Source of the DNA: Euglena gracilis
Taxonomy: Eukaryota
Length of the DNA stretch: 64,000 nucleotides
NCBI GenBank assembly: GCA_039621445.1
Contig: CP154954.1
Span: forward strand, 49,393,847 to 49,457,846
Reading direction: 5' to 3'
Positions 940-3,900 of the stretch are shown piece after piece (within the stretch, counting starts at the first letter, position 1; every line of letters begins with the position of its first letter). Made by a program: the position numbers and the translations under genes. Below the pieces are notes generated by a model. It searched no databases and was not told where the DNA came from. It saw nothing but the letters and a program-made list of their open reading frames with translations.

Positions 940-3900
940 TTATGGCCGGACAATTCGCCCCGTCCAGGCATTCCCGAATGTTGCTCACGGAACAGGGATC
1001 GGGGCCACGCCCTGCTTAGCCACTGCCTGGCCCCTGCAAGGAGCGGAGGCTGGCCAAGTCCTGCGGAGTGAGGGCCTCCGCGAACGCCTGCTGGATGCGG
1101 TGGACCTCCGCCAGGAGGGCGCTGCCAGGCTGGCCACTGCGTTGGGGCCTGGCCGCATGGGAGACCTCAAAGCGCGGGGGGCTGCCGGCCCTGCTGCCCC
1201 CCCCGGGTTCTTTCTTAATCAGGCGACCACGGTGTGACCACGGCGTGACTGCGGTGTGACTGCGGTGTGACCACGGCGTGACTGCGGTGTGACCACGGTG
1301 TGACTGCGGTGTGACCACGGCGTGACTGCGGTGTGACTGCGGTGTGACCACGGCGTGACTGCGGTGTGACCACGGCGTGACTGCGGTGTGACCACGGCGT
1401 GACTGCGGTGTGACTGCGGTGTGACCACGGCGTGACTGCGGTGTGACTGCGGTGTGACCATGGTGTGACCACGACGTGACTGCAGTGTGCCCATGGCGTG
1501 ACCATGGTGTGACCACGACGTGACTGCGGTGTGCCCATGGCGTGACCATGGTGTGACCACGACGTGACTGCGGTGTGACCATGGTGTGACCACGACGTGA
1601 CTGCGGTGTGACCACTGTGTGACTGTGGTGTGACCACGGCGTGACTGCGGTGTGACCATCGACAGTGCAACTCACACAGGCATTCATTGCTGGCCGGGCC
1701 CCGGCACGGGCGAGGAGGAAGACCTCCTGGAGGGCGCGGCCCACGTCCTGGGCGGTGTCGTCCTCGTCCATGCGGCGGATCTGGTACATCCACTCGTCGT
1801 CGGTCTTGCACCCGCCGCGCTGCTCCACCGGCTCCCAGAAGAGGACGTCGCGGTACCACAGGCGTGGGGAGCACCGGAAGCCGTACTTCACCTGTCGGGG
1901 GGGGGGGTCGGTGAGGTGGTGGCGGTCAGCCCATCGGTGGTGGCCGATGGGCGATGGCGTGCACCCCAATACCAGCACATTTTGGTTCCGGACAGCTTCT
2001 CACACTTCCTCTTTGTGGAAATATCACGAACAAAATATGGGGTGGGGCTCTGATACCATCCCACCAGCCCATCCTCTGGCTTTTTTTTTCTCGACTGACA
2101 CTTCCAATTAAGATCATTAATTCAGATCCGCGGAAAGATCCCATAATGAAGAATATGAGTGTGACACACCTCAAAAATCCTCCTAATCTAGGCAAAAAAA
2201 AACCAGGAGAGTTTGAGATGTGAATCGCTAGGGCACACACACACACACACACACACACGCGCGCGCGCGCGCGCACACACGCACACACACACACACACAC
2301 ACACACACACACACACACACACACACACACACACACACACACACACACACACACACACACACACACACACACACACACACACACACACACACACACACAC
2401 ACACACACACACACACACACACACAACGCCCTTCCCCCACACCCAAATACCCCCTCGGGGTCTTCTGCAGGGTCATTATCCGAACTTGGATTTGGTGGAA
2501 TGGCACCATTCAGTTTGGTGGAAATTTCCTGATAGGCTACTCAGGGGAATTGGGGGGGGGGAGCGTTGGGTCGTTTGAAATGAGGGGGTGGACGTGGCCG
2601 CCACACCTCTTGCTGCAACGCACTGGACAGGAGGATGGTGCAGCCCAGCGGCAAGGCCACCTCCCGCACCACCACCTCCACCGCGTTGGTCACCTCCGGG
2701 CCCCCCACCACCAAGCACCTATGACAGATTCCAAATTTTAGCCCGCGGCCGACTGCGGTCGGCCGCGGTCGGCTACGGTCGGCTGCGGTCGGCTGCGGTC
2801 GGCTGCGGTCGGCAGCGGTAGGCAAAGTAGTTGGCTGTAGGTGGGGGGGGGCAGGCCAACAAAAAATGAGCATATATCACAATCACACAATCCACTGTTG
2901 CCGACTTTTGGCCACTTTTCGCTGCTTTTGGCCAGTTTTTGATGCTTTTGGACTGTTTCACTGTTGCTTTTGGTCGATTTTTGCTGCCTTTGCCCATTAT
3001 TTCCTGCCTTTTGCTTTCTTTTGGTCACTTTTGTTGCTTTTGCCCACTTTTTGCTGGGCTTTGGCTGCTTTTGGCCAGCTTTTGCTTTGCTTTGACCTCT
3101 TTTGACCACTTTTGGCCTCTTTAACCCACTTTTGACCACTTTTCTCTGCTGTTGGCCATTTTCACCCACTTCTGGCCACTTTCAGGCCACTTTAAACGTC
3201 TTTTTGTTGCTTTTGACACCAAGAGCAGTCAAACGTGACCTAAAAATGGCCTAAAAGTGGCAAAAAAAATGGTTAAAATGGCCAAAAGTTCCAAAAGCAG
3301 GCAAAAATAACAAAAAAAATGCCCAAAGTGGTCCAAAAAAGCCAAAAAATGGCCCAAAATGACCCTGCTTTTGGCCAATTTGGGTCATTTAGCAGCTTTT
3401 GTTCACTTTGGCAACAAACTGGCACAAAATGCTCAAAATGGTCAAATTGGACCAAAAAGAGACCAACAAATGGGCAAAAATAACAAAAGAAAAGGCCGAA
3501 AATGGCTTTAAATGGTCAAAAATGGCTCAAAATGGCCCAAAATGGCCCAAGAGCAGGACAAAATGGCCCAAAATTACAAGAAGTGGGCAAAAAGTGGCCA
3601 AAAAATGTCAAAATAGGTCCAAATGGGTGAATTATGGTGACAAATGGGCCAAAAATGGACAAAAGCGCCAAAAATGGCCAAAAGTGGCCAAAAGTGGCCA
3701 AAAATGACAACATGAGCCAGATGAGCCATAAAAAAATCAACACATCTGGGATAAAAATGAGCCTAATTCCTCATTCTCACTGAAAAATTGACATCAATTA
3801 GAAAAAAAGTTGCGCGGTCGGCTGCGGTCGGCTGCGGTCGGCATAGGTGCCTGCCCACCACGAAGAACCGCTGCCCCGCCGCGCTCACCGTGGCAACGGT

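Follow-up and report, generated by a model that had tools for sequence, protein, structure and literature searches.

A probable DNA transposon of Euglena gracilis that appears to be spliced from pre-mRNA as a nonconventional intron together with one copy of its 8-bp target-site duplication

A stretch of 64,000 nucleotides from Euglena gracilis (GenBank assembly GCA_039621445.1, contig CP154954.1, positions 49,393,847 to 49,457,846 of the forward strand), hereafter the window, carries on its minus strand the gene for EG_transcript_328 and the gene for Mpp10, and each of these genes harbors a transposon-like element, designated E1 and E2, respectively. E1 lies in a coding exon of the former gene (the host gene), and transcripts of that gene lack it. 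The reading developed below, to which a probability of about 0.78 is assigned, is that E1 is a cut-and-paste transposon spliced from the pre-mRNA as a nonconventional intron together with one copy of its target-site duplication (TSD).

The host gene extends from 668 to 26725 on the minus strand and encodes EG_transcript_328 (P0001 of the eukprot set, 1192 aa); 25 of its introns have been mapped at nucleotide level, and it holds further introns beyond these, with gaps in the protein chain. A protein database search with the minus-strand open reading frame (ORF) 5267-5590 found P0001, which is colinear with 26725 to 668 of the minus strand; identity is 92-100% in the initial tblastn high-scoring segment pairs (85-89% in 3 of the 16) and 80-100% in the ungapped chain, and this mapping marks the window as nuclear DNA of E. 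gracilis. An alignment of P0001 with three homologs of 51-60% identity shows no variation at residues 1035-1045, which include the VVGG where E1 is inserted. The only Pfam domain recognized in P0001 is PBP/PstS-like, with no cyclase match at E<=1, and the ORF pieces that bear the exons gave no meaningful Pfam match. A profile of four homologs matches 19 PstS structures and also, weakly, the adenylate cyclase CyaB (3r5g_A; E 0.02, 15.9 bits) over profile positions 908-1021, a range estimated to include the insertion site. An initial interpretation of this DNA made from its letters alone (the sequence-only reading) had described the interrupted region as a cyclase-like domain; the stretch interrupted is conserved coding sequence, and the label, supported by that one weak match, is plausible but weak for the tail of the protein. 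Elsewhere in the gene, the intron at 1143-1709 contains a tandem repeat that is open in three frames, with peptide-like units and sub-threshold Pfam "ORF29-like" matches that are probably meaningless.

The features of E1, which is numbered antisense to the minus-strand gene, and of its surroundings are as follows:

2712 to 3853, plus strand: E1, read as a non-autonomous transposon with terminal inverted repeats (TIRs), 1142 bp, orientation set by its asymmetric ends
2704 to 2711, unstranded: left copy of the TSD, 8 bp, CCCACCAC (on the sense strand GTGGTGGG)
3854 to 3861, unstranded: right copy of the TSD, 8 bp, CCCACCAC
2712 to 2723, plus strand: left TIR, CAAGCACCTATG, the 3' arm of the terminal helix in the sense RNA, with the end ...GCUUG
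3842 to 3853, minus strand: right TIR, CAGGCACCTATG in the minus-strand reading, the 5' arm in the sense RNA and source of the CAG at intron positions +4 to +6
2745 to 2823, plus strand: left subterminal (GCGGTCGGCT)n array, 7.9 copies, 88% matches, separated from the TIR by a 21-nt spacer
3814 to 3842, plus strand: right subterminal (GCGGTCGGCT)n array, 2.9 copies, 100% matches, in the orientation of the left array
2892 to 3215 (approximate), plus strand: T-rich foldback arm of degenerate (CTTTTGGCCA)-type 10-mers
3235 to 3706 (approximate), plus strand: A-rich foldback arm of (AAAATGGCCA)-type 10-mers, complementary to the T-rich arm
2707 to 3856, minus strand: nonconventional intron of 1150 nt, GGG-CAG...12-bp helix...UUG-GUGGU, followed by exon G
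3857 to 3932, minus strand: upstream exon in the sense direction
2609 to 2706, minus strand: downstream exon in the sense direction, its 3' border slidable by 5 nt (2604-2609)

The two TSD copies agree at 8 of 8 positions in a script check and the TIRs at 11 of 12, the single mismatch becoming a G.U wobble in the sense (minus-strand) RNA. Coordinates and copy numbers of the arrays are those given by Tandem Repeats Finder; the right array abuts the right TIR, and base 3842 is common to both. A 20-mer consisting of two array units has nine matches in the window, all nine within E1, and none in 100 shuffles, and the arrays are putative transposase-binding sites. Both arms of the core are made of degenerate 10-mers akin to TTTTGGCC, the A-rich arm including a short oppositely oriented segment at ~3365-3409, and the AT skew changes across the core from -0.52 to +0.56. 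Many inverted pairs are present in the core, reaching 40 nt at 80% or 34 nt at 88%, and the segment 2880-3720, folded as single-stranded DNA, reaches -172.7 kcal/mol (z -6.28), a stability equaled by none of 20 shuffles. The perfect 8-bp TSD, the same-orientation arrays within both ends and the foldback core had all been described in the sequence-only reading and are found here as described; the 12-bp TIR, which it implied to be perfect, has one mismatch. The intron adjoining E1 contains the microsatellite (CA)96 at 2234-2425, and a 1-nt length variant at 3802, in the right subterminal region of E1, occurs in 19 DNA contigs.

Removal of E1 is seen in two transcript sequences. P0001, which derives from an independent E. 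gracilis transcriptome, reads QRFFVVGGPEV across the E1 site, with the upstream and downstream exons joined. Four sequencing runs were in addition aligned to 2430-16000, namely X13 (DNA), X16 and X20 (contigs, assumed to be RNA) and X21 (raw RNA reads). X16 and X20 have 7 to 8 of their listed intron-skipping joints in common with the raw reads of X21, and none of those is present in X13, from which it follows that X16 and X20 contain spliced RNA. Record 13 of X20 (181 nt) aligns to 2604-2719 with three mismatches and then 11 loose letters; two of the three mismatches and the loose letters are exactly what is obtained by joining 2711 to 3862-3880, that is, to the 19 nt after the right copy of the duplication. 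On its other side, the 54 loose letters of the record are the next exon, with the K codon of the window where P0001 has T. The E1 joint in this record is thus deduced from a loose end and mismatches. Missing from both P0001 and record 13 are exactly 1150 nt, that is, E1 and one copy of the duplication. Transcripts of the host gene thus show exact removal of E1, and they likely stem from the very allele that bears it. Restoration of the frame upon removal of the intron, as claimed in the sequence-only reading, agrees with the 1150 nt removed and with P0001, which reads across the site; retention of the intron in mRNA, which that reading had named as evidence against itself, is not seen in P0001 and one RNA contig, the two transcript-derived sequences that cross the site.

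Other RNA from the locus is of a different kind. Contigs of X16 and X20 match the unique E1 segment 2835-2932 with a G run shorter by 3 nt, and the depth over this segment in X16 is 455 vs 188 at the neighboring exon; this RNA could be a stable excised (circular?) intron or could come from transcription of other copies. At 3895, 4260 and other sites, every covering contig differs from the base of the window, the raw RNA reads being unanimous at 4260 (11 of 11) and mixed at 3895 (3 of 5), which points to strain or haplotype differences or to assembly errors.

The borders of the interruption can be compared with the code established by knock-in tests for Euglena (Nomura et al. 2025, PMC12501133), namely 5'-N3-CDG...CH'G-N5-6|R with a required pairing stem. 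The sense strand reads exon...GTGGT | GGG CAG GCACCTATG ... CATAGGTGC TTG GTGGT | G. On the 5' side, the 3-nt spacer GGG is followed by CAG at +4 to +6, in agreement with the CDG rule, and on the 3' side a 5-nt spacer, GTGGT, is followed by an exon that begins with a purine (G), again as the rule has it. The intron junction is slidable because of the direct repeats, and 2707-3856, the interval proposed in the sequence-only reading, is the sole register that obeys the N3/N5 rule. In that register the intron starts with GG and ends with GT, so the borders are neither GT-AG nor GC-AG, and the GT...AG pairs near the ends of E1, as read directly from the sequence, would all shift the frame.

The terminal helix of the intron comprises 12 consecutive pairs if G.U is allowed. 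It was assessed by duplex folding because the global minimum free energy fold of the whole intron RNA leaves the TIRs unpaired, local GC-rich hairpins winning; the terminal duplex reaches -22.1 kcal/mol (z -2.3 vs shuffles) and -26.6 kcal/mol with flanks. The intron belongs to the "CAG-nnn" class, which occurs naturally and makes up 5.82% + 0.76% (6.6%) of all E. agilis introns (Dataset S8, PMC12501133). The two spacers add up to 3 + 5 = 8 nt, the length of the duplication, and therefore E1 and exactly one duplication copy are lost from the RNA. By the same geometry, excision takes exactly one duplication copy along with any element that has CAG...CUG ends and an 8-bp duplication, whatever the target sequence.

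The second element, E2, was found through a search for the 10-mers of the E1 core, which revealed arrays near 50.7 and 52.2 kb. It sits in an intron of the gene for Mpp10 (U3 snoRNP), whose minus-strand mapping extends from 61267 to 50327, and is thus located outside coding sequence:

50724 to 52240, plus strand: E2, second member of the family, 1517 bp, with TIRs CAAGCACCTATAG / CTCTAGGTGCTTG
50716 to 50723, unstranded: left TSD of E2, GCCGTGGA
52241 to 52248, unstranded: right TSD of E2, GCCGTGGA
50748 to 50831 and 52180 to 52225: subterminal (ATTTTCGGCC)n arrays of E2, 8.5 and 4.6 copies, in the same orientation as each other
50416 to 52329, minus strand: last intron of Mpp10 (P0010 = EG_transcript_3775), 1914 nt, containing E2

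The TSD of E2 is 8 bp long and perfect, and it differs from that of E1. The termini that the two elements have in common read CAAGCACCTA, and the four termini align as CA[A/G]GCACCTA, with 9 of 10 columns invariant and four different flanks. The exact terminal 10-mer occurs in the window solely at three of the four E1 and E2 termini, the fourth being one base off. Both elements are asymmetric in the same manner, with the order TIR, ~20-nt spacer and array at the left end and an array abutting the TIR at the right end. Their array units share a TCGGC core, and the E2 unit resembles the 10-mer of the E1 core; interiors and flanks are otherwise without similarity. Since E1 and E2 have the same termini and different perfect duplications, they represent a mobile family. 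The sequence-only reading had suggested looking for copies at unrelated loci with different TSDs and had named a single-copy sequence as evidence against itself; E2, with its own perfect 8-bp TSD, is such a copy, inside the window, and the family is not single-copy.

Several observations concern the interior of E2 and possible further copies. Inside E2, the stretches 51361-51441 and 51978-52058 form a direct repeat of 81 bp (89%), and 51452-51549 is a tandem array with an 18/36-bp unit. A contig of X16 passes, in a loose end at 3814-3843, from the (GCGGTCGGCT) array into a sequence like the left end of E1 (CACCTATGACAG...CCCGCGG), with a different spacer and with the first four terminal bases missing; this hints at a third member of the family, although a processed form or a head-to-tail junction could also account for it.

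E2 also bears on the view that E1 is an ordinary older nonconventional intron, or the product of break repair as proposed for gapC, whose arrays grew in place without transposition. Milanowski et al. (2016, PMC4770533) read the eight-nucleotide junction repeat of gapC as a repair footprint, 84% of E. agilis introns have short repeats at their junctions (PMC12501133), and terminal stems are needed for splicing anyway. Against this stands E2, with the same 10-nt termini, the same array asymmetry and a perfect TSD of its own. As E2 lies inside an intron, its ends are free of splicing constraint, and since these ends nevertheless keep the TIR and a perfect duplication, selection for splicing or break repair is disfavored as the origin of the corresponding features of E1. 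Nor does E2 look like a segmental copy of the E1 locus, the similarity being limited to ends and arrays. This view is accordingly regarded as very improbable.

Chance is a poor source of such a pair, the expectation being ~0.02 per window. The window was scanned for a perfect 8-bp flank repeat combined with a TIR of at least 11/12 under a low-complexity filter, and two matches remained, E2 and a palindrome at 35930-37089; the filter also discarded E1, whose duplication is C-rich. On 100 block shuffles, the same scan averaged 0.02 matches and never exceeded 1. Unfiltered and relaxed to at least 9/12, it yielded 72 matches, mostly poly-G/C or CA runs. The pair at 35930-37089 consists of copies of a palindromic motif, GATGCGCGCAATTGCGCGCATC, that mimic a TIR and TSD, and a 36-bp tandem repeat lies at 37030-37098. 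A search of the window for the 12-mer TIR with up to two mismatches gave 7 matches vs 5.4 expected, which is not above chance; the signal is the exact 10-mer at the four termini. Of the loci listed (at least 119) by a metagenome scan with the 16-nt terminus, none is accompanied by a subterminal array or by an inverted partner whose 8-bp flank matches, and these listed matches are due to chance. The internal ORFs of E1 and E2 have no Pfam match. Two long ORFs of the window, at 30215-32101 and 41997-43844 (both on the minus strand), were rejected as low-complexity open frames that are not proteins; in the latter region, a ~900-bp tandem duplication at 42700-43700, with 40-nt strings repeated at 42712/43618 and 43046/43280, lies within a low-complexity open frame of 616 codons without a family match.

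That E1 is the insertion of a transposon belonging to a mobile family is considered highly probable, and its splicing as a nonconventional intron from the allele in the window is considered probable, with a somewhat wider margin of doubt. A number of observations weigh against one or the other of these propositions. The 3' motif is UUG instead of CH'G, its first base pairing with the G of CAG as a G.U wobble only, and the one test intron was no longer spliced after any of the point mutations tested in CAG or CTG (PMC12501133). The termini of E2 (CAAG...CTTG) lack the CAG needed for splicing. Only two members of the family are seen in the window, both of them (1142 and 1517 bp) above the ~1 kb usual for MITEs (transposable elements of the miniature inverted-repeat type; PMC3935182), and no transposase was recognized by Pfam among the 201 ORFs of at least 110 aa in the window. 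As for the transcripts, record 13 of X20 has only 19 nt past the joint, short of the 31-nt rule, and the E1 joint is not among the 15 joints listed (there are 490 further joints). At 2649 record 13 has a base other than that of the window (C>A, found in 5 of 10 raw reads), and P0001 has T for K at one nearby residue, so that these transcripts could stem from an allele or close paralog without the insertion.

These last differences support the alternative that E1 is a recent, possibly heterozygous insertion that disrupts the gene and is not spliced, the intact transcripts coming from an empty allele or a near-identical paralog. Paralogous transcripts do exist, as loose ends behind 3904 in X16 and X20 indicate, the UUG departs from the strict 3' code, and no DNA contig among those listed passes over either boundary of E1, record 1 of X13 starting at 3856. 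On the other hand, the exons that flank E1 in the allele of the window are intact and in frame, the contig of X20 carries the K codon of the window at the neighboring junction, and RNA of X16 has the window base at 2649. In addition, the sense end of E1 offers CAG, N3, N5 and a purine, where the other three termini of the family read CAAG, and introns of the CAG-nnn type are a natural class. Taken with this evidence, an unspliced, disrupting insertion appears unlikely.

The high coverage of the arrays invites a further objection, namely that repeat arrays have been mis-joined into the exon during assembly. Summed word depth in X13 is 118,000-347,000 at the arrays vs ~40 in single-copy bins, a figure that is not a copy number; the core arrays, at 235,000-347,000, are of the kind that invites mis-assembly, and the lack of a listed contig that spans the boundaries points in the same direction. 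A mis-join would, however, not yield a perfect 8-bp TSD, matching TIRs and an exact in-frame interruption of 1150 nt. Moreover, of the words sampled from the 10-kb stretch, 56-64% are present in 14 runs (recorded or guessed to be DNA), and the RNA contigs mentioned above match the unique segment 2835-2932. An artefact of assembly is therefore hardly credible.

The core of the sequence-only reading, a recent and complete TIR/TSD transposon that is now an intron, is thus upheld by the second member of the family, the removal from transcripts and the fit to the published geometry; to be corrected are the strand, gene and intron lying on the minus strand, the TIR match and the weak cyclase-like label. 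Under the preferred reading, E1 would be a non-autonomous cut-and-paste DNA transposon of an undescribed E. gracilis family with termini 5'-CARGCACCTA, an 8-bp TSD and subterminal 10-bp arrays, which inserted, probably recently, into a conserved coding stretch (the invariant VVGG) of a receptor-like gene. The insertion would be harmless because the nonconventional-intron pathway processes the pre-mRNA. The two TIRs would pair in the sense RNA as a 12-bp helix starting with CAG, the RNA would be cut 3 nt upstream of the helix base and 5 nt downstream of it, before a purine, and E1 would leave the RNA with one copy of the duplication, the original frame being restored without a scar. The tetramer CAAG is found at both ends of E2 and at the non-CAG end of E1, and CAGG solely at the 5' end of E1 on the sense strand. 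Because the other three termini read CAAG, the CAG of E1 may, on the basis of just four termini, mark a subfamily variant or have arisen by a change later than the insertion. E1 might have been spliced on arrival, or have become spliceable after a single A-to-G change that created the CAG.

Whether the same arithmetic applies to other introns was assessed on 37 of them, comprising the 25 introns of the host gene (from P0001 and RNA joints, by chained ungapped tblastn with refinement of the junctions) and 12 of Mpp10 (from P0010, EG_transcript_3775). Each intron was assumed to exceed a stem-bounded unit by K nt, and the register with the best terminal helix was taken:

K = 8: mean terminal stem 5.3 bp; stem of at least 5 bp in 22 of 37; units starting with CAG in 13 of 37
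K = 4-7 and 9-12: mean stem up to 4.6 bp; stem of at least 5 bp in at most 17 of 37; units starting with CAG in at most 2 of 37

A strict test, requiring CDG/CH'G and three more pairs, selects K = 8 in 6 of 25 introns and none at 4-7, 9 or 10. At K = 8, the eight-base flanks are identical at 7 or more of 8 positions in 4 of 37 introns vs 4 of 1332 mismatched partners (Fisher 3e-5), or in 3 of 36 without E1 (5e-4), and mean flank identity is 3.7 vs 2.5 in mismatched partners. The three introns besides E1, with their flanks, are the following:

25734 to 26535: flanks GCCTCGAG / GCCTTGAG, identical at 7 of 8 positions
4918 to 5375: flanks GCGGCGGG / GCGGTGGG, identical at 7 of 8 positions
57597 to 57788: flanks GGGAGGGC / GGGACGGC, identical at 7 of 8 positions

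All three have ends of the CAGG...CCTG type and look like older insertions of the same sort as E1. Among the 25 units of the host gene, 10 begin with CAGG, and the majority of these 10 end in CCTG, close to the CAGGCACC of E1. The octamer GGCCAAAA/TTTTGGCC has 43 exact copies in the window vs ~1.8 expected, 32 of them outside E1 and scattered through other introns. These data fit a picture in which many introns of the window are decayed older insertions of related elements, with E1 the best preserved. As a general basis of the 3 + 5 rule, the 8-bp duplication is a tentative proposal, put at slightly less than even odds.

The introns of the window contain other repeats as well. Inverted blocks of poly-C and poly-G recur at 14019-14122, ~11018-11030, 20960-20972 and 61084-61093 and are possibly part of a further family of repeats or MITE-like elements; at 14101-14122, many raw RNA reads stop or diverge. 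Long microsatellites are present at 47012-47563, (AAT)184, and at 48351-48565, (CA)108.

Among known mobile elements, E1 conforms to the Class II TIR transposons and MITE-like elements by its TIR match of 11/12, its TSD of 8/8 and the existence of two copies with different duplications. Elements of the hAT superfamily are characterized by 8-bp TSDs, short TIRs with the consensus YARNG and subterminal repeats. E1 and E2 resemble the non-autonomous (Ds-like) elements among them in the 8-bp duplication, in TIRs that begin with C-A-R and in short subterminal repeats; they differ in that their termini read CAAGC or CAGGC, positions 1-4 of which fit YARNG while position 5 is C, and in that their arrays are direct instead of inverted. 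No hAT transposase or dimerization domain was found among the 201 ORFs, and comparison of the two duplications with the hAT target-site consensus gives half-matches only, which with two duplications is uninformative. The hAT comparison, drawn in the sequence-only reading from the short subterminal repeats, is thus no more than a resemblance; a hAT-like affiliation of the family may be suggested by analogy but is doubtful.

Foldback elements carry long inverted arrays of short tandem repeats that are able to snap back. E1 shares inverted repeat arrays with them; its foldback is however internal, its termini are short unique TIRs, and its subterminal arrays are direct. The Merlin superfamily makes 8-9-bp duplications; its families F1 and F2, described from E. 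gracilis, make 8-bp ones, and all Merlin TIRs start with GG (PMC8101967). The species and the 8-bp duplication are thus in common, whereas the termini of E1 and E2 start with CA.

As an intron, E1 shares with the nonconventional introns of Euglena (PMC12501133; Milanowski et al. 2014/2016) the lack of GT-AG, CAG at +4 to +6, the terminal helix, the 3-nt and 5-nt spacers, the purine at the exon start, the slidable junction and precise removal. It departs from them in the UUG in place of CH'G, in a full and perfect 8-nt repeat, and in being a complete transposon with a sister copy. A further parallel is the strain-specific intron 4 of E. agilis gapC, a recent gain with eight-nucleotide direct repeats that was read as the result of double-strand-break repair (PMC4770533). 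Like E1 as read here, it is a recently gained nonconventional intron with eight-nucleotide junction repeats; a TIR family or second copy is not reported in the available text of that study, whereas E1 has the sister E2. The introners of Micromonas, dinoflagellates and other organisms are spliceosomal introns derived from transposons, with GT/AG supplied by the element or by the duplication (PMC11282704). E1 resembles them as a transposon with TIRs and a TSD that has become an intron within an exon and whose duplication is used in exact removal. In contrast to introners, E1 has no usable in-frame GT-AG and fits a stem-measured, apparently spliceosome-independent pathway, and one intronic copy of the E1/E2 family has been seen so far. 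E1 is, in short, read as an introner-like transposon removed by the stem-measured pathway of Euglena.

An origin of euglenid nonconventional introns from MITEs or transposons was proposed in 2014 and is treated as open in PMC3935182, PMC4770533, PMC6221363 and PMC11170887, and likewise in PMC11282704, PMC12501133 and PMC12621601. In the literature open to search, which does not include subscription papers such as the 2021 circular-RNA paper, the available text names no transposon family behind these introns, reports no sister copy outside coding sequence and makes no link between spacer lengths and duplication length. The E1 locus supplies a transposon family, a duplication length and a non-intronic sister copy, together with a link between the 3-nt and 5-nt spacers and the 8-bp duplication. 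It provides direct support for a transposon origin of nonconventional introns, a hypothesis that can now be tested directly, both genome-wide and at the bench.

A wider view may be considered, in which the 3-nt and 5-nt spacers would be a molecular fossil of the 8-bp duplication, the pathway would have been shaped to excise, at the RNA level, an element plus one duplication, and E1 and E2 would represent a lineage that is still or was recently active. The whole CAG...CTG class of introns, which accounts for about a quarter of all E. agilis introns (Dataset S8, PMC12501133), would then descend from one DNA-transposon superfamily with CAGG-type termini and an 8-bp duplication. This last proposition is a possibility that falls a little short of an even chance. 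If true, it would explain how hundreds of thousands of insertions into exons can be borne by a genome, and why the splice sites lie where they do.

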